Shown piece by piece: positions 6,842 to 55,186 of a DNA stretch of 64,000 bases (position 1 is the stretch's first letter; each line of letters begins with the position of its first letter). A model generated the notes under the pieces. The model did not search any database. It saw only the letters and a list, made by a program, of their open reading frames with translations, and was not told the DNA's origin. The stretch lies in the IMG/VR virus record IMGVR_UViG_3300027801_001565; one strand, 5' to 3'. The position numbers were made by a program, and so were the translations under genes. This stretch comes from a virus.

Positions 6842-6859
6842 ATGGTTCCTCCTTTAATA

Positions 6860-7110: not shown

Positions 7111-7179
7111 AATAGTATTTATTATACTTTAAAAGCATGTATTTGTAAAGAGTGAAGAACACCATAAAAGCTAGATAAA

Positions 7180-8151: not shown

Positions 8152-8228
8152 TGGTACGCCCTAGTGGATTCGAACCACTGACCCACAGCTTAGAAGGCTG
8201 TTGCTCTATCCAGCTGAGCTAAGAGCGT
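8152..8228 (-). tRNA. tRNA-Arg (anticodon TCT)
   Basis: ACGCTCTTAGCTCAGCTGGATAGAGCAACAGCCTTCTAAGCTGTGGGTCAGTGGTTCGAATCCACTAGGGCGTACCA; full cloverleaf with encoded CCA. Confidence 0.96.
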
Positions 8229-9742: not shown

Positions 9743-9753
9743 TATATACCGTA

Positions 9754-9782
9754 AGTATACAGGGTTTTGGACCATATGTCAA
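9754..9782 (-). promoter_or_regulatory. Early promoter TTGACA-17-TATACT, GGTCC spacer class
   Basis: Same architecture as 33665-33693 and 40765-40793. Confidence 0.75.
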
Positions 9783-9831
9783 GCATTATTTTAAAAAGAT
9801 TTCAACTCTTTTTGCTAGTAAAATCAATAGG

Positions 9832-10648: not shown

Positions 10649-10990
10649 TTATACCGGTGGTGCCTCCTTTGTTGTCACTCCGTAAAGATCTCCTACTTTC
10701 TTTTTGACACCCTTTACCGTTTCTCTTAGCTTAACGTTTGTTGGGTCCTTTTTGCCGTAATCATCTGCCATATTAGAATATGGGTTAGCGTCTGCTACTC
10801 TTGATAACACGTCTTGAAATCCTGCAGGGGGTTTAGTTCTATCACCGCCGCGTGAGCTTGCGATAGCTGGAGCTTTAGTTATGATTGAAATTATATCTGG
10901 GTTTGCTTCGAGGTATATTAGCTTGTCGGCATACGACATCATGTCGTCCCAAACTACACCTTGTTTATCTTGAAAACTATATATTGGCAT
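10649..10990 (-). CDS. Conserved T4-like hypothetical protein (FmdB-like N-terminus)
   Basis: MPIYSF start and GFQDVL motif; typical position upstream of phoH. Confidence 0.6.
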   Translation of the reverse strand: MPIYSFQDKQGVVWDDMMSYADKLIYLEANPDIISIITKAPAIASSRGGDRTKPPAGFQDVLSRVADANPYSNMADDYGKKDPTNVKLRETVKGVKKKVGDLYGVTTKEAPPV

Positions 10991-13657: not shown

Positions 13658-14345
13658 ATATAAAAGGATCGCTGTGTGGTAAGTCTTTTGGTTTCCCTGT
13701 TCTCTTTTTAGGATTATGTTTCACGTTTACCCATTGAAGTTGTTCATTCATTTCTGGGGGTTTCCCAAGTCGAGTTTTATACATGTCTCGACCCTGTACA
13801 TCTTTCAACATGTAGTCTGCTAACTTCATAACTTCTTGTTTAACTTCACCTGCGGTCCATTGAGAAGGCTCTGCTGGATCTACTGTAAAGAATACACCTT
13901 CATGTAACCAGGAGTTAAATTCACAAAGATAAATCCTACTATGTTTATTATTAAAGTATGGTGAAAATTCGGGTTGGTTCATATGAGATCCAACACCAGC
14001 TGTTATCATCCAACCTACTTTTAAATTTTTATGACAGCCAACCTTTTCAAGTACTTCTTGTGTCCACAACACATCAACATAATAACTCTCTGCGTTGATT
14101 CGTTGTGGTTTTGAATTATGATTAAAAAATACTAAGTCATATTTCTGCCTTTCAAGTAAATGTATTTGTCTCTCTAGAGATGTCTTACTTCTCCAGTCTA
14201 TGTAAATGGCATTAACATTATCTGGTTTGTCTTCCCAATCCTTGTTAGAACTTATAACGTCTATTTCATCATATCTATATGATAATTGGCGTAGCAATAC
14301 CTTACCGTATTTAGAACCACACCCTGTTAATAAGACCTTACTCAT
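13650..14345 (-). CDS. Divergent short-chain dehydrogenase-like protein
   Basis: KVLLTGCGSKYG Rossmann motif; DLVFFN; Y...K. Confidence 0.5.
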   Translation of the reverse strand: MSKVLLTGCGSKYGKVLLRQLSYRYDEIDVISSNKDWEDKPDNVNAIYIDWRSKTSLERQIHLLERQKYDLVFFNHNSKPQRINAESYYVDVLWTQEVLEKVGCHKNLKVGWMITAGVGSHMNQPEFSPYFNNKHSRIYLCEFNSWLHEGVFFTVDPAEPSQWTAGEVKQEVMKLADYMLKDVQGRDMYKTRLGKPPEMNEQLQWVNVKHNPKKRTGKPKDLPHSDPFIYD

Positions 14346-15444
14346 GTATCTTTATCTCCATTATTTTGTTTCCGCCGTTGTGTCCGTCCCAAAAGTCTTT
14401 CATATGCTCTTTCCCGTTTATTATACGCCCTAGTGGCCATCCAAAAGGTATTTTATTATCATCAAAGTCTTTACTTTTAGATATTATCTGTCTATCCTCT
14501 CTATCAGAAAATTCAAATCCAAAGTTTACTTGGTGTCCATTATTTATATCAAATTGTTTTGCGTCGTCTTCGTCTATGTATGCTAAACTTGGGCCCTTAC
14601 CTAATATACAATCTTGTGGTGCCCACACATCATAATCATCTGATGATTGATACTCGTATAAATGAGGAGGAATGTCTATATATTCCATTGATTTCCATTG
14701 AATCAGAAATTTCTTTTCTGTCCAGATACCAGGTACCTTGCAGTTCGTTTGTTTCCAGTAATCGGTAGGCATAGGTTGAATTTGTATTGTCTGAATTTTT
14801 GGAAGTTTTGCAACTCTTTTAGACTTTGAATATAATATAGGTTCTACATCATGCACAATATTATTTAAAGCAAGGACAGCATCTTTAAAAGGCACTCTCA
14901 TGTTTTCAGTAATTATAAAGTCTCCTTCAAGTTTAACTGTGGGATCGCCATTTGTCCTTTGTATCTTTTCTCTGTCTATGCAATCCACTTCCCAATTATA
15001 TATAAATGAGAAATCATATCTTCTGGGATCCCAGCATTGCCTTCTAGTACTCCATGGGCCTGCTGGATACGCTACTCTCACAAAATATCTATGTACAGTA
15101 TTTAATAACTCTCGTGTTTTCTTCTTAGACCTTTTAAAAGATACCTGTTTGGGTGATACGGGAAAATAATTTTCAGGATCTAAAAATGTGTTTATGTTAT
15201 CTATTGCATCCTTGAGTTTTTTTTCTTGTAGTCCAAGAAACTTAGATATATTTTCTGAACCATGAATGTCATTATCGGGGGAAAGCAAATTAAGTCTTTT
15301 TGAAATAAATGGTTCTGCGAACAGTAACTTGTCAACATACCAAGAAACCCACCATTGTACGAAGTCATTATTCAGATCGGGCTCCCAAACAATAGAAGCT
15401 TTCTTTCCAAACGTTTTAGGATTTAATACTACTTCTATTTTCAT
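14338..15444 (-). CDS. Hypothetical protein
   Basis: 368-aa ORF coupled to neighbours in the operon. Confidence 0.7.
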   Translation of the reverse strand: MKIEVVLNPKTFGKKASIVWEPDLNNDFVQWWVSWYVDKLLFAEPFISKRLNLLSPDNDIHGSENISKFLGLQEKKLKDAIDNINTFLDPENYFPVSPKQVSFKRSKKKTRELLNTVHRYFVRVAYPAGPWSTRRQCWDPRRYDFSFIYNWEVDCIDREKIQRTNGDPTVKLEGDFIITENMRVPFKDAVLALNNIVHDVEPILYSKSKRVAKLPKIQTIQIQPMPTDYWKQTNCKVPGIWTEKKFLIQWKSMEYIDIPPHLYEYQSSDDYDVWAPQDCILGKGPSLAYIDEDDAKQFDINNGHQVNFGFEFSDREDRQIISKSKDFDDNKIPFGWPLGRIINGKEHMKDFWDGHNGGNKIMEIKIHE

Positions 15445-16001
15445 ATCATATCAATATGTAATATTTGATAACCAATAAGTCGAGAGCCAGGACCTGGGTT
15501 GGTTATTGCATGTGTTGTATTCCAGTTGTTTAACATAAACACTCCGGTTCCTTTTAATACAGGGCCCTCGTATCCTAGCTCTAAAAATCTAGTACCGGAG
15601 CCTTGTGGATTGTCTTGTAGGTTTATAATTAATACACCAAAGACATGTCTGTTGTCTATGTGTGGGGACATATCAAAACCTTCGCCGTCTTGTATAACTA
15701 CTCCAATGTCTTTAAACTTTGGCATTCTAAATTTAGATAAAGACTTCATCCACATCTGCCTTACCTCTTCTATATTACTTATATCACCTTGTATATACTT
15801 TTCTAATATTGTTGTATGTGCGTCCCACGCATCACAAAAGTCTAATTTGTCTATTCCTGGTTTACTTTCTTTTCTTAAATGTACAGTATCTGACTCATAC
15901 CCTTGATCATATGTATCGTCTCCTGTAAACAAATATTGGGGAACATGAAACCCCGTTACTTCCCAAACAGGAAAGTCATTGTCTATTAAATCTAATCTCA
16001 T
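15441..16001 (-). CDS. 2OG-Fe(II) oxygenase-like protein
   Basis: HID...H facial triad and distal R; GTRF motif. Confidence 0.65.
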   Translation of the reverse strand: MRLDLIDNDFPVWEVTGFHVPQYLFTGDDTYDQGYESDTVHLRKESKPGIDKLDFCDAWDAHTTILEKYIQGDISNIEEVRQMWMKSLSKFRMPKFKDIGVVIQDGEGFDMSPHIDNRHVFGVLIINLQDNPQGSGTRFLELGYEGPVLKGTGVFMLNNWNTTHAITNPGPGSRLIGYQILHIDMI

Positions 16002-17251
16002 GCTAAATGTTCTCTGTGGTCTGTAGATTTCCGTATCTTTTTGTATGGGTTGTCTTCGTGAGACATTGTGTCGTCTAATACATTCGCCTTACCACATGTC
16101 TCAGTACATAATGCTAGTTTTCCATTAGCAGTGGTTTTATCCCAATCATCTGAATACACTTTGTTTAACAGGCCGGTGTCTAGTAATTCTTTTAACGATA
16201 TGTTGTGTAGATTAAAATTGTCTAATCCTAACTTTAACATTTTTTCTTTTAATTGGTGGGTTTTAAATGTTATAGATGTTTTTTCTGATTTATCAATAAA
16301 GGGGATAATAATTCCTATCCAACAACAGGGGGTAACAAAACCACTGGCGGATACATATACCTCTCTGTAGCACCTTGGACGAATTGGTGTGTTGTCCCAC
16401 TCTTCTAGATGATGCTGTTTAACACGAGTCAAACCGACTGTGCCTTCTATGTATCTATGCCTGTGTGTATTGTCTGGCATTGTAACTTTGTCAAACTCTT
16501 TATTCTTTGTTATAATAATATCTGTGTTAGTTGTTTTAATATAGTTTACTTTGTCTTTTTGCTCTGTAGGAGGATATATTTGATATTCAGTTTTACCTTC
16601 TTTGTTTAGAGCTGGCATGGTTGCGTGATTATTTCCATCGTCTAATCCATGAGCTTTTTTAGGTGAAAACTGTTTGATGCCTAACTGTATTGACATCTCT
16701 TTAGCAGCTTTGACTTGTAGTTCGTTGTGTTTAAAAATTAAAAACTCCCAGTCACTATTACCTTCATGTTTAGTATATGCTTTAACATTAGCCATCAACT
16801 TATCCCAATTTACATTCCTTCTGTATATGTGGTTTGTGTCTTCTAGGCCGTCTATTGAGAATATCATTTTCCATGATTCAGGTCTTTTTGCAAACAGCAT
16901 TCCGATCTTATCCCAAATTTTGGGTTGCTTCATGCCTCCGTTTGTGTGCATCTGTACGCCACAATAGTACTTTGTATTATCAAAAACATACTCTAGTATA
17001 GGGACTAAGTCTTTACATGAACCCGGATCGCCGTGATTGCCACAGAATAAAATCTGTTTCATCTTCATTAAAGTCTCTCTTGGAAACCACTCTTTAAACT
17101 TTTCTATAGTTATTGACTGTGGGTAAAGTTCAGGAATAACATTGGGGCTATTTTGAAAGTACCGTGGACAGTTAGGACAAATAGAGTTACATACACTAGA
17201 TAACTCAACGTGCATCTTGTTTATATTGTCGTATGAAAAATAGCCGCTCAT
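15998..17251 (-). CDS. Radical SAM protein with C-terminal SPASM/twitch-like Cys region
   Basis: CNSICPNC; GNHGDP; FSIDG; YVSASG.VTPCCW...CTETC. Confidence 0.9.
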   Translation of the reverse strand: MSGYFSYDNINKMHVELSSVCNSICPNCPRYFQNSPNVIPELYPQSITIEKFKEWFPRETLMKMKQILFCGNHGDPGSCKDLVPILEYVFDNTKYYCGVQMHTNGGMKQPKIWDKIGMLFAKRPESWKMIFSIDGLEDTNHIYRRNVNWDKLMANVKAYTKHEGNSDWEFLIFKHNELQVKAAKEMSIQLGIKQFSPKKAHGLDDGNNHATMPALNKEGKTEYQIYPPTEQKDKVNYIKTTNTDIIITKNKEFDKVTMPDNTHRHRYIEGTVGLTRVKQHHLEEWDNTPIRPRCYREVYVSASGFVTPCCWIGIIIPFIDKSEKTSITFKTHQLKEKMLKLGLDNFNLHNISLKELLDTGLLNKVYSDDWDKTTANGKLALCTETCGKANVLDDTMSHEDNPYKKIRKSTDHREHLA

Positions 17252-18642
17252 AATTGTCTCACGGGAATATTTTTTTCTTTTAACGCATCTTGAACTTCGT
17301 TTTGGTGATATCCATAATAGTCAACCATATTATATGGCAAATCCATAAACCATTTATGTGCGTCTGGGTTTGTTAGCTTGTACAAGTCAGGGAGTTTAAT
17401 TGTTTTTTGGTATTCGTCCCTGTGTAGCGTCTTACTTTTAATTGCACTTAAATACTCTGGACTATCTAATACATCTACATTCTCCTCTTTAGAACGTAAA
17501 TAATATTTTAAAATATCAATTGTTTTTTCTTTGTTTACAAAAGAAGAGTTTTCAAAAGCTTGTATTGCGTGTTCCATTGCTGGTTTAAATATATGTGTAG
17601 GATAAACACATATATCTAAAATACATTGTTGCGCTTTATCTCTTTGGTTGATCATATATAGATGATTTGCCACTCTCATACCTGGCCACTGCTCGAAGAA
17701 TTTTATATATCTATCAATGTCAAATATAACAGGAGCTGTTAACACACTTGCTACTTCCATTGTAATACCTGCTTCGTGGAACTCTCTCCAATTCTCCTCA
17801 ATAATATCCCACTTGGCACCGTCCCTTGTATACTCCAAGGTTTCATGTGTTCCATCTAAACTTGCCTCAATGCGCAAGTGTTTAAACTTATTTAATATCT
17901 GGGCGACAGGTTTACCTTTCCACATTCTTCGTGTAAGGTTTGTATTATAATGTACTCTAATGTTATCAATATAATCTGTATATTCCGGATCGTCTCTCAG
18001 TTCTAACATCTTTTCCATTACAGTCCAATGTACAGGTGACATAAATGGCTCACCGCCTGCCCAATAGAAACCTGTTATTCTTTTTTCTACTAAACCTCTA
18101 ACCATTTCATCGGCAGTAGCCTTCTCATGTTTCTTATCAACTTTGAAAGGGTTGTTGTATGTACCACCGTTTCCAGGAGAGGCGTTTAAAGCTTGCTCAC
18201 TAAACATATCTTTAAATAGTTCTATATGCTGAGAACTGTACACTATTCCACACGATACACATTGTAGATTACAATGTATTGTTCTAGAGTCGTAATAAGA
18301 TGGCTCACTTACTAAAGCACCACTCTCATTTGTTTCTTCTAATATACTTTTATATACATCTTTTATTTGTCCATCATTTTCAAATGTAGACTCTTGTCGT
18401 AACGATAGTATTCCGTTTTCTTCGTTCTGATAACATGCGTGGCATTCTTTTCGCTTAACACCGTTTAACATATCTAAACGTGTACGTCTCATATACCCCG
18501 AGTTCCAAAACTCTTTTTCTGTTGTTTTTTGTTGTCCCTTTAGGTCGTCAGATATACAGCAATATTTTCTTTCGTAACGACTACCTTGATAGTTTTCTAT
18601 CCACGGGAAAATACATAGCGATTTATTAGAATTTGAATTCAT
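17248..18642 (-). CDS. Radical SAM protein with N-terminal twitch-like domain
   Basis: CIFPW...YCC...CHACY N-terminal region; CNLQCVSC; AGGEPF; YNTN; SLDG. Confidence 0.9.
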   Translation of the reverse strand: MNSNSNKSLCIFPWIENYQGSRYERKYCCISDDLKGQQKTTEKEFWNSGYMRRTRLDMLNGVKRKECHACYQNEENGILSLRQESTFENDGQIKDVYKSILEETNESGALVSEPSYYDSRTIHCNLQCVSCGIVYSSQHIELFKDMFSEQALNASPGNGGTYNNPFKVDKKHEKATADEMVRGLVEKRITGFYWAGGEPFMSPVHWTVMEKMLELRDDPEYTDYIDNIRVHYNTNLTRRMWKGKPVAQILNKFKHLRIEASLDGTHETLEYTRDGAKWDIIEENWREFHEAGITMEVASVLTAPVIFDIDRYIKFFEQWPGMRVANHLYMINQRDKAQQCILDICVYPTHIFKPAMEHAIQAFENSSFVNKEKTIDILKYYLRSKEENVDVLDSPEYLSAIKSKTLHRDEYQKTIKLPDLYKLTNPDAHKWFMDLPYNMVDYYGYHQNEVQDALKEKNIPVRQL

Positions 18643-19882
18643 AATTAAATATATCCTTCCATGGGCCCATTTTACGAGTTTTCTCTACCTCATTAAGAAA
18701 AGTCATTCCTTGATCCCATAGGAATTTCGACTCTTCTTTTGCGTCCAAATAACTTGTTAGGGTAGGGGTTAGTATTTGATGTTTGTATTCTGATTGTTCT
18801 AAATGTGTTTTTACTTTTTGTTTCCACTCTATAGATGCACAATTTAAAGATAGATAATGAGGAAACACTAACATGTTCTGATTAATTGTTGCTATTCCTA
18901 AATCAGGATTTGCATTTCGTTTATCCACAATAGGCTGTGCCCACTTGTAGTAATCATCCAAGTATGGTGCATTAAGAAACTGTACTGTGTTAGTTATGTT
19001 GACTGCGTATAAAGACGGAGTTTCAAAAAAGAACTTATGTATGTTCTCATCTATTTGTTCCCAGGTGTTACCTTTAACAGGTTTTCTTATCCACTCGTTA
19101 ACTTTATCTACACCATCAACAGACATACCTAGAGATACATGTTTAAAGTGTTTCCATATATCCTCATACCAAGTCTCGTATTGAGAACAGTTTGTATTGT
19201 AACTTATATGAATGTTCTTAGCAACACCCTCTTCAATTAGTCGCTCTAAAAACTTCCAATGGAATGGCATCATAAACGGTTCGCCACCATTGATGTACAT
19301 ATACTTTAACGTGTCTTTGTGTTCTAATATTTCTTCAATTTTATCGTTGTTGAACCACTGATATTCTTTATATGTCTTGGGATCTGCAACAACAAAATCT
19401 AATGCATCGTCCCACTGCTTGTATTCAGATGCAAGAGATGAACTAGAGTCTGGGTTACACATCATACATTTTGAGTTACATAAATTAGACATTCTTAGAT
19501 CTAGAAACTCTAGTCTAGGTTTTGTTATGTTTTGTCCCCATCGTTCTCTTTCAACTAAACGTCTGGACTTCCCACCTCTCTTTTCTATCTTGTAACAGTT
19601 GTGGCAAGCAGGTGGCTCGACTCCGGATAACATCTGTTCTCTTGCCCTTATTACATTACTCTTATCCCATAATGTATTTACTGAATCTGTTGCAAGGTTT
19701 AACATTTTGTTTGTTTCCATATCTCTATAGAAACCATCTGAATTGGGGTTCATCATTTCTGATACACAGCACAATCCTACATTTCCGTTAGGGTGTAGGT
19801 TCATGTGGTTAAAGGGTAGAGGGCAATACACGTCTGACATGTTTTTATCTGATATGTTTTTAACTTGTATTTTATTAGACAT
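18626..19882 (-). CDS. Radical SAM protein with N-terminal twitch-like domain
   Basis: CPLPF...LCC...CHNCY; CNSKCMMC; NGGEPF; YNTN; SVDG. Confidence 0.92.
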   Translation of the reverse strand: MSNKIQVKNISDKNMSDVYCPLPFNHMNLHPNGNVGLCCVSEMMNPNSDGFYRDMETNKMLNLATDSVNTLWDKSNVIRAREQMLSGVEPPACHNCYKIEKRGGKSRRLVERERWGQNITKPRLEFLDLRMSNLCNSKCMMCNPDSSSSLASEYKQWDDALDFVVADPKTYKEYQWFNNDKIEEILEHKDTLKYMYINGGEPFMMPFHWKFLERLIEEGVAKNIHISYNTNCSQYETWYEDIWKHFKHVSLGMSVDGVDKVNEWIRKPVKGNTWEQIDENIHKFFFETPSLYAVNITNTVQFLNAPYLDDYYKWAQPIVDKRNANPDLGIATINQNMLVFPHYLSLNCASIEWKQKVKTHLEQSEYKHQILTPTLTSYLDAKEESKFLWDQGMTFLNEVEKTRKMGPWKDIFNYEFKF

Positions 19883-21296
19883 TTACTGCTCCAATCCTTT
19901 CTGGTATTTCTGTGTCTATACTGTTATACCAATCTAAAAAATATTGTGGAAATACATCTATAGTTCTATCTCGACGCATATCGTATTGTGTATAGAATCG
20001 TTTAAAGTCTCTAATGTTTGCCTTCATATCTGGATCTGCAAAATCATGTCCACGTTCAACTGTTCTAATATAATTAATTAATCTTTCTATATCGCCTTTT
20101 TCCATCGCGTTAAGAAACCTGTCATCTTTATTTATTAGATACCAATCTTCAATTTCTTGGGCTAGTCTGTGTCGTATGTCCATCGGCAATACCATCATTG
20201 ATTGACAAGCAGGGAAACGTAAAAAGTTAATACTAATACCTATGCTCTTGTTTGGATACTGGTGTTTCCATGTAATAACTTGTGTTAGAAACTTTGTTAT
20301 ATTAAATAAACATAAAGCATTAATAGTCATCATTACTACTGTTCGTTTAATATTAGATTCGGTGAAAACTCGTTCCATGTTTTCTTTCCAGTAATCATAT
20401 TTAAGTCCCCATCTAATATACTCTGCTTCTTTACCTACTGTCTCATTACTAGAGAATAAAGTAAGGTTAGGCATTCCGTGTGACTCTTCAATTAGTCTAT
20501 TAATTAATGCTGGCTTAGCACCTAGGTTGGAGTTTAGTCCTACTTCAAATGTGTGGCCTTCTTCTTTAACTTTAGCAAACAACTTCCAAACATCATTAGA
20601 CATCAATGGTTCGCCACCTGTAATCCTTAGTGTTCGTAATCCTTTACTGAGCTCCGGCCACCATTCCCACCACGCTTTGGTGTATGGGTTATCTTCTTCA
20701 GGAAGTCTTTCGTATGGATTGTTTTCATCTCCATCTATCATAAAGACTTTACCTCCATGAGTTTCCATGTCGTAACCGCCGTTTTTACGAATGTCCTTAC
20801 GCCACTCTGTACTGAAGTCTGCGTTACAGTAAGTACAAGCAAAGTTACATGTTCTAGAAAACGATACTTCTATTGTAGGTGGTACCACTCTTTCTGTATG
20901 AGGAGCATCGTACCACTTTGACATTTCCTCTTCTGAAAATTGTAAAGACTTATAAATTCTATCTGAGACATAATCCTTACCCATGTCTTCTACTTTCCAG
21001 CAGTACTGACATTCTCTAGGACGTTTACCGACTTGCATCTCAAGACGGCGCTCCATTTTTTCTCTTGTATTGTGTAACATAGACGGATCTTTTGCAATGT
21101 CGTCTATATTAATATCATGTGGTGAGGGGTGATGGCAACTAGTTGTTTTACCACTATGTAACCATATAGTACTGTTGCCCCACTTAGCCCCGCAGAAAGA
21201 TTCGCTCTTACTGTTTAGCGTATCGTCTCTATACTTAATTAAGTTAGACGGCTCGCCTATAGTTAATTGTGGTTTATCCGCCATAGTAATTATCAT
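19875..21296 (-). CDS. Radical SAM protein with N-terminal twitch-like domain
   Basis: CGAKW...SCHH...CQYCW; CNFACTYC; TGGEPL. Confidence 0.92.
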   Translation of the reverse strand: MIITMADKPQLTIGEPSNLIKYRDDTLNSKSESFCGAKWGNSTIWLHSGKTTSCHHPSPHDINIDDIAKDPSMLHNTREKMERRLEMQVGKRPRECQYCWKVEDMGKDYVSDRIYKSLQFSEEEMSKWYDAPHTERVVPPTIEVSFSRTCNFACTYCNADFSTEWRKDIRKNGGYDMETHGGKVFMIDGDENNPYERLPEEDNPYTKAWWEWWPELSKGLRTLRITGGEPLMSNDVWKLFAKVKEEGHTFEVGLNSNLGAKPALINRLIEESHGMPNLTLFSSNETVGKEAEYIRWGLKYDYWKENMERVFTESNIKRTVVMMTINALCLFNITKFLTQVITWKHQYPNKSIGISINFLRFPACQSMMVLPMDIRHRLAQEIEDWYLINKDDRFLNAMEKGDIERLINYIRTVERGHDFADPDMKANIRDFKRFYTQYDMRRDRTIDVFPQYFLDWYNSIDTEIPERIGAVNV

Positions 21297-22758
21297 CCAT
21301 TAAATATGCTAGCTCAGGGAAAGTGTTACAGAAATCATTTCCACGTCTTTCGTCTAGTTGTTTTAAATATAACCTCATGTCATCATATACGACTTTTGGT
21401 TGTTTGTCGGTTTGCATAAACTCTACAAGCCTTTCCATTTGATCCACTTCCTCTAAATAAAAACATTCCTCGTCTTTACGTTCGTCTGTTATTTTGTTGG
21501 CGTGCATAAAGTCTAACCACAACTCACCATAATATTTTTTATCCTTTTCATTAATTAATGATAACATTAAAGTTCGAGGCCACCGCAAATAATTTAAATG
21601 TGTTCGTACTCTGAATACATGCTTTTGTGGTTGGTATATAGAACCTTTTGTGCCACGCATGTCTTTTATCTCTTGTAAGAACTCTATCATGCTAGGTGCA
21701 CTAGTTAAATTAATTGTAGTCATAAAATGTATTCTTGTAGACTCGGGGGTTTCATCTAGTATCTTATAACAGTTATCTATAAACTCTCGATACACCATAC
21801 CTTCTCTTGTGTACTCTGCATGTTTACCTGTGTTTTCAAATGAGGTGTATATGTCAAAGTACTTAATGTTACCTTGCATCTCATTTATGTTTTTAATAAG
21901 TCTGTCAGCCATTTTATCGGGAACATTGTTGTTTGTATTAACTGCGAGAATAAGATTGGGATTTGGATTCTCTTTAATATAATCAAATACCTTCCACGTG
22001 TCTTTACTAAGTAAAGGCTCACCACCTGTTATTCTAAATGTTTCTAATTTAGGATACAACTCGGGCCACCATTTCCAAAAAGCCTCTTTGTATGGGTTGT
22101 AGTCTTTTCGGTGTATAGGTAACTTGCCTTCTTTCCTCAACCAATCTAAATTATTTAAATTAAACTCTGTTTGCTTCATGTCTCCGTGCTGACGTATCTC
22201 GTCTTCCCATCTTGAGCTAGCTTCGGGGCTACAGTAAATACATTTGAAGTTACATGTGCTATCAAAAGCAACTTCTACATATGTTGGATCAAAGTTTTCT
22301 CCTTGCCCAGATTCTACAATTTTATCTATGTGAGGTAGCGACCAAGAGTAAGACGACTTGTAAACTCTATCACTTATGTGTTCTGGATTTTGGTTTTCCA
22401 CTCTCCAGCAGTAATCACACTCTTTAGTCTGTATGCCTTGTAGCATTTCTTCTCTAGCAAGCATCTTGTGTTTTGTATTGTGTATTCCCCTTGGGTTGTC
22501 CTTAATATCTGATAACTGTATTTTATGGCGTGAGGGGTGGTGACAGGAATGTGTTTCGCCACTGTATAATAGTATTGTAGACTGTGTCCATTTAGCAGCA
22601 CAAAATGAAGGGCTAACCTCATCTAAGTTTTTTCTAGAATCTTTTAAAAATTCAAAATAAGCATTGGGATCGTGTACATCTAAATTGTGTTGTGCGTGTG
22701 GACTGTCTTTCTCTTCACGGGTCTCGGTAATATTTGTAGTTTCTATAATCTCTGTCAT
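21274..22758 (-). CDS. Radical SAM protein with N-terminal twitch-like domain (paralog of the adjacent gene)
   Basis: CAAKW...SCHH...CDYCW; CNFKCIYC; TGGEPL; WWPEL shared with 19875-21296. Confidence 0.92.
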   Translation of the reverse strand: MTEIIETTNITETREEKDSPHAQHNLDVHDPNAYFEFLKDSRKNLDEVSPSFCAAKWTQSTILLYSGETHSCHHPSRHKIQLSDIKDNPRGIHNTKHKMLAREEMLQGIQTKECDYCWRVENQNPEHISDRVYKSSYSWSLPHIDKIVESGQGENFDPTYVEVAFDSTCNFKCIYCSPEASSRWEDEIRQHGDMKQTEFNLNNLDWLRKEGKLPIHRKDYNPYKEAFWKWWPELYPKLETFRITGGEPLLSKDTWKVFDYIKENPNPNLILAVNTNNNVPDKMADRLIKNINEMQGNIKYFDIYTSFENTGKHAEYTREGMVYREFIDNCYKILDETPESTRIHFMTTINLTSAPSMIEFLQEIKDMRGTKGSIYQPQKHVFRVRTHLNYLRWPRTLMLSLINEKDKKYYGELWLDFMHANKITDERKDEECFYLEEVDQMERLVEFMQTDKQPKVVYDDMRLYLKQLDERRGNDFCNTFPELAYLMDDNYYGG

Positions 22759-25796: not shown

Positions 25797-27179
25797 ATGC
25801 ACAAACTCAAATCAATTATTGCTTGGACAGTCTTCGCGGGGTATTTAGCAATAGCTCTAGTACCGGCCGACGCTTACGCACAGAGCACAGGTACTTGTAC
25901 CGCTGGTACTCAATATTGTGAGACTGTAGATAATACAACCACAACAACGACTACCACCACTGGTACCAACACCAACAATAATACGAACAACAATACCAAC
26001 AATAACACATCAGCTAATACGAATACTAACACTTCGACGAATACGAATACAAATAATAACACATCGGCTAACACAAACACCAATACCAATACTAGCACGA
26101 ACACCAATACCAACAACAATACATCTGCTAATACTAATACAAATAATAATACATCAGCTAATACGAATACCAACACTTCAACAAATACAAACAACAATAC
26201 ATCAAACAATACCAATAATAATACCAACACCAATAACAACACAAACAATAATACTAGCACATCAACTAGTAACAACACCAACAATAATACGAACAACAAC
26301 ACTAGCACCAGTACTAATAACAACACAAATAACTCTACTTCAAACAATACGAACAATAATAATTCAACTGTTAACAGTACTGCTAATAATACGAACAACA
26401 ATAATTCAACAGTAGATCAAACTGTAAATAGCACGTCAAATAATACGAATAACAATAACAACAATACAAAATCTGACAATAACAACACGAACAACAATAA
26501 CAACACCAGCACAAGTGATAGTAAGGTGGAGACTAATAACAAAAACGAAAATACCAACACCAATAACAACACGAACAAGAATATAAACGAAACAACTCAG
26601 AACATTAAACAAGAAATTAAGAGCCCTCCAGCTAGTGCAATTGCACCAAGTATTGGGGCGTCGTATTCTCAGGACCTATGTACAACTGGTGTAAGTGGAG
26701 CTTTCCAAGGACAAATATTTGGTTTAGCTGGAGGTATGTCAATTAACGATTTAAACTGTGAAAGAATTAAACTTTCTAAAACAGTATATGATATGGGCAT
26801 GAAGGTAGCAGCGGTTTCCTTAATGTGCCAAGATGAGAGAGTATTTAAGGCAATGGAAATGGCAGGAACACCTTGTCCTTACCAAGGAGCTATAGGTCAA
26901 GAGGCAGCAGCACAATGGGTTGCTAATCCTACAGAAAGGCCTGACTACTCAGAATACCAAGCAAAGTTAGACAGAATAGAAGAGGAAAAACAGGAAGCTA
27001 TACTTCAGGAAATAAAACTTCAGAAAAGTTTGAAGTCTGATTGGATAAGAGCTTGTAAGAAGACATTACATACTTCCGGCAAATCATCTAGAACCGGCCG
27101 TAATTTAAAAGGCATTAAAAAATCTGGGAGCACTTGTAAAAGAGAATGGAAACTTTTAGAGACTTCATCTACAAACTAG
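25797..27179 (+). CDS. Secreted protein with a long Asn/Thr repeat and Cys-containing C-terminal domain
   Basis: Signal peptide ending AYA; about 220 aa of N/T/S low complexity; PPASAIAPS...DLC...CERIKLSK...MCQD...GTPCP domain. Confidence 0.85.
   Translation: MHKLKSIIAWTVFAGYLAIALVPADAYAQSTGTCTAGTQYCETVDNTTTTTTTTTGTNTNNNTNNNTNNNTSANTNTNTSTNTNTNNNTSANTNTNTNTSTNTNTNNNTSANTNTNNNTSANTNTNTSTNTNNNTSNNTNNNTNTNNNTNNNTSTSTSNNTNNNTNNNTSTSTNNNTNNSTSNNTNNNNSTVNSTANNTNNNNSTVDQTVNSTSNNTNNNNNNTKSDNNNTNNNNNTSTSDSKVETNNKNENTNTNNNTNKNINETTQNIKQEIKSPPASAIAPSIGASYSQDLCTTGVSGAFQGQIFGLAGGMSINDLNCERIKLSKTVYDMGMKVAAVSLMCQDERVFKAMEMAGTPCPYQGAIGQEAAAQWVANPTERPDYSEYQAKLDRIEEEKQEAILQEIKLQKSLKSDWIRACKKTLHTSGKSSRTGRNLKGIKKSGSTCKREWKLLETSSTN
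25930..26600 (+). repeat. Coding low-complexity repeat (NTNTNNNTSA-type units)
   Basis: Imperfect peptide repeats with diversified AAT/AAC/ACN codons. Confidence 0.9.
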
Positions 27180-33068: not shown

Positions 33069-33104
33069 TACGCATCGTCGCTCCGAGTACTTCACACATA
33101 TAAA

Positions 33105-33124
33105 AGGGGCTGTATAAGCCCCCT
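33105..33124 (-). terminator. Intrinsic terminator of the 33143-33526 unit
   Basis: AGGGGCT-tatac-AGCCCCT followed by TTTAT on the minus strand. Confidence 0.7.
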
Positions 33125-33142
33125 GTGTGTAACCCCTATATG

Positions 33143-33526
33143 TTAAACAGTTATATTACTGTTTGCTATTACTTCCTTTTTACATAATGCCCAATCACAT
33201 TCAACATCATGTTCCTCAAAGTAATCCTCAAACACTATGTTTGTGCAAAAGTCAATTGCCTCAGTTTTGTTAAAAAACACATTACTCATGCTACTATTAC
33301 TGTATAAGTAATCCCCGTCCTCCTCAATTATGTACAAGTTCACAAAGTCATTAACCCTGTGTGTTTCGCCTTTCTCAGTATTTTGTAAATCCCTCAAAAG
33401 TGCTTCAATTTCCACAGTTACTTGTTCAATTTGTACTCCCTCCTCCTCAATGTATAATGTTATGTGTGTTTCCCCTAACGCCAAAGTGTTGTTAAGTGTT
33501 TGTAAAGCCGTTGTAAAGTTTTTCAT
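33143..33526 (-). CDS. Acidic early protein (127 aa) in a dinucleotide-depleted transcription unit
   Basis: Own promoter, AAGGAAG RBS and terminator; 25 D/E versus 7 K/R; no Pro. Confidence 0.8.
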   Translation of the reverse strand: MKNFTTALQTLNNTLALGETHITLYIEEEGVQIEQVTVEIEALLRDLQNTEKGETHRVNDFVNLYIIEEDGDYLYSNSSMSNVFFNKTEAIDFCTNIVFEDYFEEHDVECDWALCKKEVIANSNITV

Positions 33527-33569
33527 TTTGTACTTCCTTTTTAGTTTTTCATTTTGTTAATATGTACAT

Positions 33570-33598
33570 ATTATACTGTTTTTGGGAGTACATGTAAA
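33570..33598 (-). promoter_or_regulatory. Sigma70 promoter TTTACA-17-TATAAT
   Basis: Near-consensus with exact 17-nt spacer, upstream of 33526. Confidence 0.8.
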
Positions 33599-33664
33599 CC
33601 TTTTTATAGTACTATAACTGAGGTTTATGAGGGGCTATAGGGCGAAATCTTTTAAAAAGAATGC

Positions 33665-33693
33665 TTGACAAATGGTCCTAAAGAGTGCATAAT
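33665..33693 (+). promoter_or_regulatory. Early promoter TTGACA-17-CATAAT, GGTCC spacer class
   Basis: Followed by AACGGTATAAT as at 40765-40793. Confidence 0.8.
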
Positions 33694-33723
33694 AACGGTA
33701 TAATACAGTAATGGAGAGAACAT

Positions 33724-34256: not shown

Positions 34257-34383
34257 CGCTTGTAAAGAAGTTATACGGGGTGTGCACCTTCCCCCTTGTA
34301 AAGAAGTATTCTCCCCCATGGTGCCATCCCCCTTGTAAAGAAATATCCGCTACCCTGTACCTAGTCGCTTGTAAAGAAGTATT
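34257..34383. repeat. Four interspaced direct repeats CTTGTAAAGAA(G/A)T at 36-37-bp period
   Basis: Core starts at 34259, 34295, 34332 and 34368, with non-identical intervening sequences. Confidence 0.88.
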
Positions 34384-34733
34384 AGGGTGGGTGGTGGCAA
34401 CTATCCAGAGTACCAAACGCGCCAATCTCCAGGGCTTGACAAAAGCTTCTGAGTGTGTTAAGACCTGGGCTGAGGGTGGTAGAATCTTTTGGGCGAATAG
34501 CTCTGGTACCCTAGCTGCTTGACATTCAAGGCGCGTTAGGTTAGATCTACCCATATACTATACCAGCGCTACCTAGCTATTCAAGTATAGACGGTGGGTG
34601 GTTGGGTGGTGGTTAGATTAAAGTGGTGGGGTGGTGGTGGCAATACAGAAGTATTCTACTACGGCTGGGGGTGGTAACTAACGATTATTGCTAAGGCGTG
34701 TGGCACCACGCTCTAGCCATCAAGTGCTCTTAT

Positions 34734-36279: not shown

Positions 36280-36956
36280 GTAGCCTTTCCTGGAACGCCT
36301 TGGATGCGTCTATTATATACTAATCCTGCGCTGTACTGTGGACTTAATCCACCTTTCTCTAAGCCATCGATCCATTGCTCGTGATCGAATATATCTTTTG
36401 TTGGTTCACCGTTGATGATAAGTTCATTTTCTTCAGTCCAAGTCAAATCAAATGCTGGATTGAAACGTGTAAAGATAGGCGAGCCGTAACCAATCAATAC
36501 TGGTGGTGGGTTCTCTGTCATGCCATACCAGACTCTAACTGTTGCTCCTTTCCTTCTTAAAAGGTCACACATATCTTGCGTAACAATATCTGCACCAAGT
36601 ACACAATACTCCACACATGTCATGTCCAAGTCTGTGAACGTTGGTTCTGCCTCAAGTAATGGTAAATGTGCTGGTACTAGGTATATGTGTGTGGGCTGTA
36701 TCCTTATAAAGTTCCTTACATAGGTTTTAGCATCGAACTTCATGCAACTGTAATCACATCCGCTCAATACTGCTGGGTATGCTGATATTGTCCAATGGGC
36801 AATGGTGTTCGAGGGGTAAACATCTAATACTCTGCTGTCTTTGGTTAGCTTCATTTCAGCTATAGTATACTCAGCACATTGCTTGAGATACTCCCATGAG
36901 TGTTCAATTACCTTTGGCTCTTTAGTTGTTCCTGATGTGTATAATGTAATACTCAT
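36261..36956 (-). CDS. Compact AMP-binding (acyl-CoA ligase-like) adenylation protein
   Basis: LYTSGTTKEPK P-loop at the extreme N-terminus; WYGMTE; T.D. Confidence 0.75.
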   Translation of the reverse strand: MSITLYTSGTTKEPKVIEHSWEYLKQCAEYTIAEMKLTKDSRVLDVYPSNTIAHWTISAYPAVLSGCDYSCMKFDAKTYVRNFIRIQPTHIYLVPAHLPLLEAEPTFTDLDMTCVEYCVLGADIVTQDMCDLLRRKGATVRVWYGMTENPPPVLIGYGSPIFTRFNPAFDLTWTEENELIINGEPTKDIFDHEQWIDGLEKGGLSPQYSAGLVYNRRIQGVPGKATWKNTF

Positions 36957-38566
36957 GCTAGTTTCATCTCCTTATATTGGTTTATAATATTTATGTGTGT
37001 ATTAATTAATCTAGCTCCTAACGGTTCTATTTCATTAAAACTCTTCTTCATGTCTTCTAGAGTATAATGTCCGCCTGTGAGATATCTGTGATAATAGAAT
37101 ATGCCAGGAGCGAGCTGGTTCATCTCTACAGGATCTGATGCTATATCTGAGAATAGCTTCCAGGCCTCCCAGACGTTCATAGTTTCATGCTCCCAATTTG
37201 CTACACCGCTAGCGTTCATATAGAATTCTACTATCTCTTTATGCTTGTCAGGTATCTCATTAATATCATAGCCTAACTCCTCATGCGTTCTCTTTATAAA
37301 GACTCCTGATGTCCAGGCTGTTCTATCAAACTCTGAAGGATTAGTTGCCATTGCGTTCATCTCGCCATCAGCTACCATTAATGGTGCATAACTATATGAC
37401 TGGCCTTGCATGTTCTCCATTACCCAATTCTTACCGTCGATGAATGTCTCGCGTGTCTCATAAGGCAAGCCCACTATCATTGATATCGTACATCTGTATG
37501 CTCCCTTTGCCTCGAACCAATCCTTAACCTTTAATAGTCCTTCTTTTAGTCGTTCAGGCTTCATGCCTTTGCCTACATACTTCGCTGCTTTGTGATTGAA
37601 ACTCTCAAGACCATAGAACTGACTCCACAATCCCATATCCCAGATGTCCTGCCAAGTATCAGGATTAGCGACTAATAGATCAGCTCGTATATATCCTGCT
37701 AAATGTATTTTAAATGGTAATGATCTAATCACATCAGCAATCTTCTTTAGCTTGGCTGGGCTATCGTTTATTGTCTCATCTGATATCGTATAAGTTCGTA
37801 TTCCCCAGCGTTCGTAATTATCTAATAGCTCTGCTCTTAGGCTCTCTCCACATCGTGAATGATCTCCCTTTACTCCTAGCACTGTAAAGGAACAGAACTT
37901 ACATGAGAATATACACCCACGACCTAATTCAATCGTTGGGATCTCGTCATCTCTCATATAGTCTCGATCTTCATATTTAATACAGGCTTGAGGCATAGGC
38001 CACGCTGGATAGTCTGTTCTACATTGTACTATATTTCTCTCGGCTCCCCAGAATGTTTCTTTGTGTATTTTGATGTCATTAGGCTCCCCTTTGATGTATT
38101 TGAGGAGCTCTAGTATGCCATATTCAGCGAAACCACCTACATAATAGTCTAGGGGATATGCTAGGGTAGCTGAAATATTTTGAGATCCACCAATGAAGGT
38201 TAATTGAGGATATAATGATTTGATGTGTGCTAGGTTTGTAACAATCTCTTTTACTTTCTCCTGGTTCTTCTTGCCTGCTCCTCCTAATGGAAACATAGCG
38301 GAGAGTCCTACAAATATTGTCTCGTCTGTTACTCGTTGTTCAAATAGTTTAACAAGTTCTTCTCTTGTCCACGCAGGCCAGAAGTCTATTACTTCTACAT
38401 CATAGTCGTGTTCTCGTAACCAAGTAGCAATTCTATGTCCACCAGCAGTTCGTTTAATGCTAGGCCAGAAGTCTGGCTTATCCGCTTCATCTTGCGAACT
38501 GATTTGGTTTCGTGTTTCACTGGTGTCCTCTCTTTCGAGTATACCACCAAGTATTATGCCGTGCAT
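36953..38566 (-). CDS. B12-binding radical SAM enzyme
   Basis: N-terminal cobalamin-binding-like region; ELGRGCIFSCKFC; DETIND; GLESF; IVGLPYET. Confidence 0.88.
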   Translation of the reverse strand: MHGIILGGILEREDTSETRNQISSQDEADKPDFWPSIKRTAGGHRIATWLREHDYDVEVIDFWPAWTREELVKLFEQRVTDETIFVGLSAMFPLGGAGKKNQEKVKEIVTNLAHIKSLYPQLTFIGGSQNISATLAYPLDYYVGGFAEYGILELLKYIKGEPNDIKIHKETFWGAERNIVQCRTDYPAWPMPQACIKYEDRDYMRDDEIPTIELGRGCIFSCKFCSFTVLGVKGDHSRCGESLRAELLDNYERWGIRTYTISDETINDSPAKLKKIADVIRSLPFKIHLAGYIRADLLVANPDTWQDIWDMGLWSQFYGLESFNHKAAKYVGKGMKPERLKEGLLKVKDWFEAKGAYRCTISMIVGLPYETRETFIDGKNWVMENMQGQSYSYAPLMVADGEMNAMATNPSEFDRTAWTSGVFIKRTHEELGYDINEIPDKHKEIVEFYMNASGVANWEHETMNVWEAWKLFSDIASDPVEMNQLAPGIFYYHRYLTGGHYTLEDMKKSFNEIEPLGARLINTHINIINQYKEMKLA

Positions 38567-40743: not shown

Positions 40744-41265
40744 TTATTCCTTTATTATACCGTTATTATAGCAGCCTAAGGACCTTTTGTCAAGCATTTT
40801 TATAGCTTTTATCGCCTTTATTGTGTGATTTGTATGATTTTTAATGTAATCATGTGCTAATAGTGTCTCCATATCCCACGCTTCACGTTCCCATGGCTCA
40901 CAACGTCTGTCTGTGTGTTGTTTACCTTTCCACATGTTAACCAAATATGGGGGATATCCGAGGCGTTTATCAGTCAACTCTTTGCGTACATATTGCTTGA
41001 CGTGTACCATTTCGTGGCATGTAGTTCGTATGAGATTGTAATGGTCCTGATGTTTGTCTAGTTTTATTTCACAAATGTTATCGTGTTGGTGCATACAACT
41101 TCCCATTATACCTTCAGTTGTTGTATAATTGCCTATGTGTACGTCTAGATCAAGTGTGCTAAAACGTGGTAGCATTTTGTCTATGCAATATACCATCACA
41201 TCTAATGCTAGTTCTCTTTGATTTTTACGTCCGCCTTCAAGGTGTAACCAGTTACCTGGGTGCAT
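40744..41265 (-). CDS. Zincin-like metallopeptidase
   Basis: CHEMVHVKQ (HExxH) and PWEREA third ligand. Confidence 0.75.
   Translation of the reverse strand: MHPGNWLHLEGGRKNQRELALDVMVYCIDKMLPRFSTLDLDVHIGNYTTTEGIMGSCMHQHDNICEIKLDKHQDHYNLIRTTCHEMVHVKQYVRKELTDKRLGYPPYLVNMWKGKQHTDRRCEPWEREAWDMETLLAHDYIKNHTNHTIKAIKAIKMLDKRSLGCYNNGIIKE
40765..40793 (-). promoter_or_regulatory. Early promoter TTGACA-17-TATAAT, GGTCC spacer class
   Basis: Perfect consensus plus downstream AACGGTATAAT. Confidence 0.8.
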
Positions 41266-53287: not shown

Positions 53288-53947
53288 CTAATTTATACCA
53301 TTGTCTATATGTCCTGCTACTGCAAAACCCTGTTCCCTTTCTTTACACCAAAAACACTCACCACATCTGCCTCGTATCATCTCTACACAAGAGTGGGATA
53401 CTTCTGATATGCCTTCTAATATACCAAGACTATATGCTAGTGTAACTATCTCATCTTTTGTCATATCTGCAAATGGTTGTCTTATAATATCTTTTATGGG
53501 TGTTCCTTCGTGCACCGCATCACTATCCCTAGATAAATTCCTATCTCCTGGTGTGTGATAACTGCATAATGTTTTGTAATTGTCTGGATAGGCATTGACG
53601 CCGGTGTAAACTATGTCTGCATATCCATCTAAAATAATCTCTCTAATACCACCCATTAACTGAGCAGCTACTTCATCTCCTTGGTAAGGTTCGTCTCTAT
53701 TCCAATCTACAGAGTCTGCATGTACTACTATTGGGTGTAATTGTTTTGTGCCATAATGATTACAACTACCCTCCAACATTTTAGTAGCATATGTTAATGC
53801 ACCGTCTACTTTAGGAACAGTAAAAGGTATACATTTTTGATTCCGTGTTAAACACTCACCGTATATAATGTGCCACATTATTGAACTGTCAAACCCGCCC
53901 GATACTACGACACCTATTGTCTTATTATGGGGAATTTCTATTCGCAT
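53288..53947 (-). CDS. QueC-like PP-loop ATPase
   Basis: VSGGFDS PP-loop; PF....K..IV; SC......CGECFWC.ER Zn motif. Confidence 0.7.
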   Translation of the reverse strand: MRIEIPHNKTIGVVVSGGFDSSIMWHIIYGECLTRNQKCIPFTVPKVDGALTYATKMLEGSCNHYGTKQLHPIVVHADSVDWNRDEPYQGDEVAAQLMGGIREIILDGYADIVYTGVNAYPDNYKTLCSYHTPGDRNLSRDSDAVHEGTPIKDIIRQPFADMTKDEIVTLAYSLGILEGISEVSHSCVEMIRGRCGECFWCKEREQGFAVAGHIDNGIN

Positions 53948-54606
53948 ATTACCTCTGCTAACCTTTTAATTGACTTTGGCCCTGGGTGCATATTATCAAA
54001 GCCTCTGTCTAAGAATTCGAGATGATATAAACCCTTTGCCCAACTATATTTGTACCAACCTATTTCTAATGCAGTTGGATTTAAAACTCCAGGCGCTCGC
54101 ACCACTGGTTTTATATACCATTCAAATATCTCTGTTCTACCTTTACACATTTCTCTTACTGCCATCATATAGTCTGATGTTCTTACTAATAAAGTCTTTG
54201 GACATAGCGAAATCATATCTTTTCCCACACCCATCTCCGGGGTGATATTCGATGTCCAATGTCCTATTGCCTCTACTGATAAAACATCTGCATTTTGCTC
54301 ATTCACAACACACATTCTCCAAGGAGACGTCCATCCTATTACTACTTTCTTTGGATAACCATGTTCTGTTACATGTCGTACAAACTTTTTAAATATGTGT
54401 TCATTAGACTGTGCTGGATAACCAAAGTTATAAACCTTCTTTGCCTGTATATTTTCTAGTTGTACGTGCAGTCTATCTTCTTCATCTATTGCCTCGCCCC
54501 ATGTACAAGAATCACCGTACAAGGCTACAGAATCTGCCCACTCAACGCCTGGTCCATCGTAATGAGGGCGATGTCCTTTTATAGGAGTGTAATATAGCTT
54601 AATAAT
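53938..54606 (-). CDS. SGNH-like protein, probably with a non-ATG start
   Basis: LYGDSCTWG, NFGYPAQSN, DNMHPG; frame open upstream to 54618 without ATG; AAGGAG 7 nt before ATT. Confidence 0.6.
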   Translation of the reverse strand: MIKLYYTPIKGHRPHYDGPGVEWADSVALYGDSCTWGEAIDEEDRLHVQLENIQAKKVYNFGYPAQSNEHIFKKFVRHVTEHGYPKKVVIGWTSPWRMCVVNEQNADVLSVEAIGHWTSNITPEMGVGKDMISLCPKTLLVRTSDYMMAVREMCKGRTEIFEWYIKPVVRAPGVLNPTALEIGWYKYSWAKGLYHLEFLDRGFDNMHPGPKSIKRLAEVICE

Positions 54607-55186
54607 ATGCGTTCTCCTTTATACTATGATCTGTAACATCTCTTACGCCTTTAAGCTCAGGTATTGCAGCCATCAATTGGCTTTCAACCCCATGCTTTAA
54701 TGTTGCGTCTACTCCAGCACATCCTTGACATCCGCCACCAAAACTTAATACTACTATATTGTCTTCAGTTATCTCTACCAGATTACATTCACCACCATGT
54801 TGAGCGACACCAGGATTTATATCGTTATATAGAATATAATTAACTCTATCTACTAGTGTAGCATCTTCTCCTACCTGAGGCGTGCGTGCCTGTGGAGCTT
54901 TGATAGTAAGTTGTGCGTTGGTATTGTGTGTTGCATAATCTACTATTGCGTCCTCTAAGTAAGGTACACTCTTTTTATCTATGTATACCTTAAAGGTTTT
55001 GTATTGCTCAAACAAATCATCATCTAGTTCTTCACCAGGTGCCGAAAAGGCAAGACAAGTCTCTGCCCGTACCTGGCCTGCATTCTCAATAAATATTCTT
55101 ACTGCAACATCTTTAATAGTGTGTTCTGTAAGTATCTTTGTGAGGAACTCTTGTGCCTCAGCTGTTATGGTTACTGGATTTATCAT
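54599..55186 (-). CDS. nfuA: Fe/S biogenesis protein NfuA
   Basis: A-type N-terminal domain plus NifU-C domain INP..AQHGG...FGGGCQGC...TLKHGVE; VRDVTDH...AYY end typical of gammaproteobacterial NfuA. Confidence 0.92.
   Translation of the reverse strand: MINPVTITAEAQEFLTKILTEHTIKDVAVRIFIENAGQVRAETCLAFSAPGEELDDDLFEQYKTFKVYIDKKSVPYLEDAIVDYATHNTNAQLTIKAPQARTPQVGEDATLVDRVNYILYNDINPGVAQHGGECNLVEITEDNIVVLSFGGGCQGCAGVDATLKHGVESQLMAAIPELKGVRDVTDHSIKENAYY

Follow-up and report, generated by a model that had tools for sequence, protein, structure and literature searches.

The DNA analyzed here is the 64,000-nt stretch of the IMG/VR virus record IMGVR_UViG_3300027801_001565 (the window), and the element in question is a small transcription unit on its minus strand whose template strand contains neither GA nor GG. 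Between positions 33109 and 33584 (476 nt), the plus strand has 0 GA and 0 GG, and each of its 58 G's is followed by T (48) or C (10). When the same zone is read on the minus (mRNA) strand, TC and CC (together, YC) are absent, i.e., the mRNA has no UC or CC. The features of the unit are as follows.

33109-33584, no strand assigned: GA/GG-free zone; the plus strand is the template strand and the minus strand is the mRNA strand without TC or CC
33570-33598, minus strand: sigma70-type promoter TTTACA-17-TATAAT, matching 11 of 12 consensus positions
33533-33539, minus strand: Shine-Dalgarno-like AAGGAAG, 6 nt before the ATG
33143-33526, minus strand: family A gene encoding 127 amino acids, with 25 Asp+Glu, 7 Lys+Arg and no Pro
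33104-33124, minus strand: intrinsic terminator hairpin (AGGGGGCT-loop-AGCCCCTT, then a T-run)

The zone begins in the promoter spacer, 8 nt before the -10 box, and relative to the consensus TTGACA, the -35 box of the unit is missing the GA. Along the transcript, YC first appears in the CCCC of the terminator's 3' arm, where the zone ends. A preliminary description of this DNA had placed a GA/GG-free transcription unit at 33110-33583, had stated that it starts in the promoter spacer (promoter at 33570-33598), covers the untranslated regions and the coding sequence and ends at the terminator stem (33105-33124), and had reported that the open reading frame uses no Pro, TCN, TTC or ATC codons. 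All of this was borne out, with the zone one nucleotide longer at each end. Its statement that G runs are required in the terminator stem was mistaken, since YC-free stems (e.g., alternating GC) are possible.

The GA/GG-free rule in the window and across lineages

No other GA/GG-free run in the window approaches this length; the second longest on the plus strand is 156 nt, and the longest on the minus strand is 124 nt. The preliminary description had named equally long runs elsewhere as the sign of a chance event, and there are none in the 64 kb. At the window-wide probability that a G is followed by a purine (P(R|G) = 0.42), the chance of the zone is 1.8e-14 per site. Among 48 rules of the form "base + class of neighbour", the zone is the top outlier, with a run 4.2 times the expected maximum. 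With the protein held fixed and the codon usage of the window, the probability of 0 YC is 4e-8 and 7e-9 for two orthologues, with 4e-8 for the window gene. The other minus-strand genes of the window have a YC density of 0.053-0.096 per nt, in agreement with the earlier remark that they contain GA and GG freely.

Family A homologues are known only from marine metagenomes, and their contigs (loci L001 etc.) were retrieved and scanned. Every family A homologue retrieved is surrounded by a stretch of 328-1069 nt in which the mRNA strand has no YC, and the next-longest YC-free runs in those loci are 50-130 nt. The rule is kept even among homologues with 28-35% protein identity, so the depletion in diverged orthologues that the preliminary description had proposed to look for is present in every homologue found. 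Summed over nine lineages, the zones comprise 6237 nt with 0 YC on the mRNA strand, and their non-coding part (1354 nt) also has 0 YC, compared with ~90 expected from the density of the other intergenic regions of the window. In all nine units, the absence covers the entire functional message, untranslated parts included. In addition, near-identical contigs carry 42 natural substitutions inside the zones; none of them makes a YC, and every C/T difference follows a purine (this spectrum includes few sites outside the zones). Taken together, these results show that the GA/GG-free rule is conserved across lineages and is therefore selected.

Since the non-coding nucleotides inside the zones also have 0 YC, the rule is not a codon effect. 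Codon or amino-acid bias is ruled out, as the non-coding parts comply and the synonymous null fails, and chance or artefact is ruled out by the run statistics, nine independent assemblies and control genomes. As such a control, five cultured Kyanoviridae genomes (S-H38, S-CREM1, Bellamy, Syn9 and 220 kb of P-SSM2; ~960 kb) have no YC-free run longer than 180 nt on either strand, and no family A homologue was found in them. In the one IMG/VR relative, the 25-kb fragment L079 (IMGVR_UViG_3300017706_001873), a neighbouring 967-aa protein is 77% identical to its counterpart in the window; the 8 kb to each side of it contain no YC-free unit, and the 25 kb contain no TGT. No relatives of families A and B were found among INPHARED phages (tblastn), family A had none in IMG/VR, and the region had no match at the DNA level in the phage collection.

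Each gene inside a unit has 0 YC, encodes 0 Pro and is acidic, and the next downstream genes have 17-35 YC and 2-11 prolines. The gene content of the unit varies between lineages as follows.

Window and L007: family A alone
L001 and L076: A and a 76-aa protein (D)
L016: a 65-aa protein (B) and A
L073: B, A and a 59-aa protein
L012: a 90-aa protein (C), B and A
L070: B alone

In all lineages, the zone opens within a sigma70-type promoter or a short way before it. In the window, L001, L007/9, L011, L012 and L076, the zone runs up to the C's in the 3' arm of the terminator, a G-run/C-run hairpin. L070 and L073 have no terminator; there, the zone ends 11 and 1 nt past the last stop codon, respectively, and the next early-promoter cassette starts at the 3' end of the zone. 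These results show that the zone edges track transcription, with the promoter on one side and the last stop codon or the terminator on the other.

Two further observations concern the composition of the units. At L006 (793-1053, compared with 33328-33433 of the window), a family A variant has an in-frame 105-nt deletion through which the middle of the protein is lost; the deletion drops roughly one of two similar GETH...LYIEE segments, and the shortened unit remains YC-free. When the zones of the window, L001, L007, L011, L012 and L016 are pooled (4369 nt), the mRNA strand shows a second, non-absolute depletion, 3-5 fold, of GCT (8 compared with ~42 expected) and of CGT (7 compared with ~25 expected). 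Terminator stems account for three of the eight GCT, one each in the window, L001 and L007. The Ala codon GCT is used in 3 of 50 cases in these pooled zones.

Promoters of the unit and of other early cassettes

In six non-redundant lineages, the top strand of the unit promoters, scored from -36 to +16 relative to the end of the -10 box, has 37 G's, of which only 5 precede a purine. The corresponding count for other early cassettes is 26 of 49 (Fisher 2e-4), and intergenic controls reach 60%. As these lineages are related by descent and offer few motifs, the difference is suggestive rather than conclusive. From ~30 nt after the -10 box, the share of G's followed by a purine on the top strand is back to 61-68%. 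Inside the unit, the non-template strand has normal GA/GG (59% of G's compared with 60% in other genes). The -35 boxes of the YC-free units read TTTACA, TTGTGT or TTGTAA, never TTGACA, and each lacks exactly the GA, which the other early cassettes retain. These results suggest that the unit promoters avoid GA and GG on both strands, and that later only the template does. A DNA-level obstacle to RNA polymerase predicts such a pattern, in which both strands matter in the promoter and only the template matters afterwards.

At least three copies of an early-promoter cassette are found in the window, and further copies lie in related loci, as listed here with the units that the window copies drive.

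33665-33693 (within 33656-33714), plus strand: divergent cassette (GCTTGACA-N3-GGTCC...CATAAT), the contrast unit, with 34 YC in 567 nt
9745-9803, minus strand: cassette copy driving a unit with 18 YC in 435 nt
40746-40801, minus strand: cassette copy driving a unit with 37 YC in 615 nt
L012 5237-5265 (minus strand), L070 ~10210-10245 and L073 ~10760-10795: cassette copies elsewhere

Since these cassette-driven units have normal YC, the rule belongs to one special unit and not to early genes generally. The layout of the cassette is GCTTGACA, 3 nt, GGTCC, and CATAAT or TATAAT, often with AACGGTATAATA after it. In most promoters of YC-free units, the spacer GGTCC is changed to GGTTA or GGTTT, or is missing.

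Candidate causes of the rule

We consider it possible, with a probability of about 0.45, that the unit is immediate-early and that its promoter and template offer none of the guanines which the phage's own DNA modification would reach. The stricter form, a "plain-DNA" immediate-early cassette in which both strands of the promoter and the entire template are kept clear of the phage's own modification motif, is put forward more tentatively. In the proposed mechanism, G in 5'-GA-3' and 5'-GG-3' of the phage DNA would be exchanged for a modified base, most plausibly a 7-deazaguanine inserted by a DpdA-type transglycosylase, and one immediate-early unit would have no modifiable site in anything that the host RNA polymerase recognises or reads. 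If the modified base hinders transcription, then on the injected, fully modified chromosome only this unit would resemble ordinary DNA to the unaltered host polymerase; alternatively, if the base draws attack, only the template of this unit would be immune to a host enzyme directed against it. The unit would hence be expressed first, and its one to three small, very acidic products would then presumably adapt the host (polymerase or defence) for the remaining genome.

What favors a DNA modification is that the missing dinucleotides match the target motifs of DpdA. The DpdA of phage CAjan replaces G at GA and GGC, as the preliminary description had correctly stated, and not at GC, GT or GGT (PMC7544227); that of phage iggy replaces G at GA only, strictly (PMC10484667). 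In addition, the avoidance of GA and GG on the other strand of the promoter is predicted by a DNA-level cause and not by an RNA-level cause. The weak QueC-family match in the window also counts in favor of this reading. Palindromes of 4 bp are not avoided in the window, which fits protected DNA and equally fits a host poor in restriction systems. The same result disposes of the proposal that the purge removes restriction sites; GATC, TCGA, CCGG and GGCC have observed/expected ratios of 0.74-1.12 across the window and are not avoided.

Several results weigh against an unmodified template as the cause. No DpdA/TGT, FolE, QueD or QueE was found in the 64-kb window (open reading frames of at least 120 aa, Pfam scan); the preliminary description had suggested looking for these genes as a check of its "bootstrap" gene. 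In the QueC-like protein that it also reported, encoded at 53288-53947 (minus strand), only the C-terminal 70 residues match the Pfam QueC family, with 38.5 bits (cut-off 22); the NCBIfam score of 31.5 is far under the cut-off of 150, and the match to a solved QueC barely registers (E 0.6), so the assignment is marginal. Moreover, major-groove substituents on 7-deazaguanine or hydroxymethylcytosine are normally tolerated by RNA polymerases, and phages such as 9g and CAjan are transcribed by the host polymerase off modified DNA. The units behind other near-consensus sigma70 cassettes, which are GA/GG-rich on both strands, are undepleted, and termination requires that a GGGG on the template be transcribed. 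At L070 and L073, the first template GA/GG comes only 11 and 1 nt past the last stop codon; a polymerase that stalled so close behind the stop codon would cover it and keep ribosomes from reaching it, so an absolute block fits poorly. A pause, or run-off after a host enzyme has nicked the DNA or excised the modified base, would fit better than an absolute block. Finally, the known DpdA motifs take in GGC and not every GG. The earlier idea of a gene that host RNA polymerase can read first is thus supported in part and indirectly, through the DpdA motif match and the avoidance on both promoter strands, and is weakened by the missing modification genes in the window and by the undepleted early units.

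The main rival, to which we give a lower probability, is that the rule arises at the RNA level and confers immunity on the transcript, which would shun UC and CC to escape an enzyme, of host or phage origin, directed at pyrimidine-C steps in single-stranded RNA. Such an enzyme could be an endoribonuclease, as the preliminary description had also suggested, or a translation-blocking modifier; a single hit would kill the message, and the acidic products may inhibit the enzyme. The reach of the rule fits this reading, since it spans the 5' untranslated region, spacers and coding sequence alike, halts directly past the last stop codon where there is no terminator, and in terminator-bearing transcripts leaves YC only in the base-paired 3' arm, even though YC-free stems are possible. 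Precedents exist in MazF with ACA-less mRNAs (PMC5408214) and in CmdT, which acts at GA in phage mRNA (PMC11618068). The phage also encodes a transfer-messenger RNA (tmRNA), which would be useful if many messages were cut. Nevertheless, we know of no bacterial enzyme with UC/CC specificity, and none was found in the literature searched. The avoidance of GA and GG on the non-template strand of the promoter and the loss of GA from the -35 box are not predicted at the RNA level, and the match of the missing dinucleotides to the DpdA motifs would be a coincidence. The UC/CC-cleaving nuclease proposed in the preliminary description stays in contention as part of this rival.

Two other explanations agree with part of the pattern. 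Attack on the displaced non-template strand, by a cytidine deaminase acting on single-stranded DNA at TC/CC (APOBEC3- or DddA-like) or by a dC-specific nuclease, would remove sites through mutation pressure or selection. TC/CC is the classic context of APOBEC3/DddA-type enzymes, T4 endonuclease IV cuts at TC, and both the strand and the edges of the transcription unit fit. We nonetheless find this improbable, as there is no CC-to-CT signature (TT is up, but P(T|C) is 0.23 compared with 0.27), the Ala codon GCT is depleted 5-6 fold and not enriched, read-through DNA downstream of units without a terminator has normal YC, and other transcribed early units are unaffected. It is more improbable still that the rule makes the RNA blind to Rho, whose primary binding sites read YC dinucleotides (PMC5314796, PMC6144790), so that a YC-free RNA with G above C could not load it. 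The specificity matches exactly, the zones have 10.8% C and 21.7% G, and the alpha-type tmRNA with its tag ending in ...YALAA suggests a proteobacterial host, thus one with Rho. However, Rho must load on ~70-80 nt of RNA and then has to catch up with the polymerase, so that YC in the last 80 nt would do no harm; in all lineages, the purge nevertheless extends without exception up to the last stop codon or the hairpin. There is no relaxation in the last 80-100 nt, the first YC comes in the 3' arm of the terminator or 1-11 nt past the last stop, and zero tolerance is not needed to prevent loading. A cyanobacterial host would have no Rho at all, since to our knowledge cyanobacteria lack it. Jointly, Rho and attack on the non-template strand receive a small share of the weight, and the remainder is left for explanations yet to be conceived. 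Hardly any weight is due to the idea that selection favored a message with little structure or with high translatability, or that the rule follows from the acidic composition of the protein. The RNAs of the zones do fold more weakly (-0.15 to -0.19 kcal/mol per nt compared with -0.217 for control gene segments, standard deviation 0.028), but the difference is merely 1-2 standard deviations, graded selection gives no absolute rule, the non-coding parts comply, and the probability of 0 YC given the protein is ~1e-8.

UV photoproducts at TC/CC and guanine oxidation at GG/GA were considered and rejected. On general grounds, the purged strand is wrong for UV, the template is very TT-rich, and chemical damage, being graded, would not produce a rule without exceptions.

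Avoidance of short motifs is a known viral escape from sequence-reading enzymes, and several systems resemble the purge in part. The DpdA systems of CAjan, 9g and iggy act on dinucleotide-scale G contexts that are those missing from the template here; unlike here, no gene or promoter kept motif-free has been reported for them, and in our case all GG is absent and not GGC only (PMC7544227, PMC10484667). For MazF (ACA-less mRNA) and MqsR (GCU), the motif is likewise absent from the whole message and harmless if base-paired (PMC5408214). Those motifs are 3-7 nt long and the nuclease is known, whereas here two dinucleotides (1/8 of the types) are purged over 0.3-1.1 kb, all proline codons are given up, and we know of no matching enzyme. 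The strand-biased avoidance of EcoP15I sites by T7 is similarly a strand-specific rule in a phage sequence that is explained only via the mechanism of a DNA-reading enzyme, in that case a type III restriction enzyme; it differs in being genome-wide, in concerning the orientation of a 6-bp site, and in not being bound to one transcription unit. In eukaryotic viruses, dinucleotide avoidance is also driven by a host factor that reads single-stranded nucleic acid (CpG and ZAP, UpA and RNase L, TC and APOBEC3), but it is graded and genome-wide, whereas the zone here is absolute, local and strand-specific.

Modified-DNA phages also counter a host threat at the outset of infection, with IPI* of T4, which is injected with the DNA, and with Ugi of PBS2. 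The logical problem is alike, since an inhibitor is required before the phage has made any product of its own, and the products are small and acidic. The difference is that T4 packages the protein, whereas the solution proposed here would be a gene written as exempt. The utilisation sites of Rho belong to the same dinucleotide class on nascent RNA (PMC5314796, PMC6144790), and the purge differs from them in being absolute and in reaching places where Rho could not act. In the literature searched, we found no published case of an absolute, strand-specific purge of two dinucleotides from one transcription unit, and no precedent is known to us.

The rule has held across lineages diverged to ~30% protein identity at the cost of every proline codon, which would mark a very strong, single-hit selective agent in the first minutes of infection by an abundant marine phage group. 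If the agent is the phage's own modification, the long-standing question of interference between hypermodified bases and host transcription, and of the phages' answer to it, becomes directly testable. The modified base would then be a real obstacle to host transcription or a target of a host enzyme, the timing of transcription would be encoded by where modification can and cannot sit, and the modification motif could be read computationally from the genome sequence. The acidic proteins would represent a novel kind of factor through which the host machinery tolerates modified DNA or ceases to attack it. If the agent is instead an RNA-directed enzyme, a new UC/CC-specific nuclease or modifier is predicted, together with its inhibitors.

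The proteins of the unit, the phage and its host

With a diverse alignment of seven sequences, AlphaFold2 gave a confident alpha/beta model for family A (pLDDT 89, pTM 0.82), compared with a poor one from near-identical sequences only (pLDDT 53). Family A had no match in Pfam, PHROGs or PDB sequences in profile searches, and nothing usable was found in the ESM Atlas. With the pLDDT-89 model, Foldseek found nothing at E<0.1 in PDB and BFVD, and the best of 48,161 chains in VIA-align had a Z of 4.4, which is no clear match. The invariant residues G18, E27, T37, L44, V83 and C94 do not look catalytic. Family B is 86-100% conserved across nearly all variants found, and hundreds of metagenomic contigs carry some of these variants. 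The unit proteins may be binding proteins or inhibitors. Family A is strongly acidic (25 Asp+Glu compared with 7 Lys+Arg), as might be compared with the DNA-mimic anti-restriction proteins Ocr, ArdA and Arn; searches of Pfam, PHROG and PDB and with Foldseek and VIA-align turned up nothing that resembles IPI*, Ugi, Ocr or Arn, either by sequence or by fold.

The window encodes gp32, gp59, PhoH, a T4-type RNase H, ThyX and both ribonucleotide reductase subunits, in the order found in Synechococcus phage S-H38, and its gp32 has 56-59% identity (tblastn) to cyanomyophage gp32. We class the phage as a T4-like marine myovirus that lies outside the cultured groups. Two RNA genes bear on the host.

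6859-7160, minus strand: permuted (two-piece) tmRNA gene (tmRNA_permuted 114.5 bits; the best Rfam group model is alphaproteobacterial, 73.7 bits)
8152-8228, minus strand: tRNA-Arg(TCT)

The tag peptide of the phage tmRNA is AEANGYALAA, and phage tmRNA lineages track those of their hosts (PMC9004378). None of the 4-bp palindromes is avoided in the window, with observed/expected ratios of 1.12 for CCGG, 0.79 for GGCC, 0.91 for AGCT and 0.96 for GTAC, whereas the five cultured cyanomyophages strongly avoid CCGG (0-0.69), GGCC, AGCT (0.10-0.36) and GTAC. Because the tmRNA is of the alpha type and the palindromes are unlike those of cyanomyophages, the host may be a proteobacterium rather than a cyanobacterium.

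The window also has a large repertoire of putative tailoring enzymes, with at least seven radical-SAM enzymes together with GNAT, hydroxylase, desaturase-like, carbamoyltransferase and AMP-binding enzymes. Together with the weak QueC-family protein (53288-53947) and a NifU-like Fe-S scaffold protein, they are found on the minus strand at 14338-22758, 36953-38566, 53288-53947, 54599-55186 and 62638-63873. The QueC-family protein adjoins the genes for ribonucleotide reductase, and the NifU-like protein lies close by. Beside the early region, a tandem array of four units 36-37 nt apart is found at 34259-34400 (plus strand) of the window and, in a second lineage, at L016 2650-2820. In each unit of the array, a 15-nt core (CTTGTAAAGAARTAT) is conserved and is accompanied by a G+C-rich portion that varies, and the array might represent iterons, a terminator array or small RNAs. 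At 25797-27179 (plus strand), a 460-aa protein with a signal-peptide-like start contains ~250 residues of Asn/Thr-rich repeats (NTNNNT...), and these repeats account for the long GG-, GT-, TG- and TT-free runs at 25964-26605.

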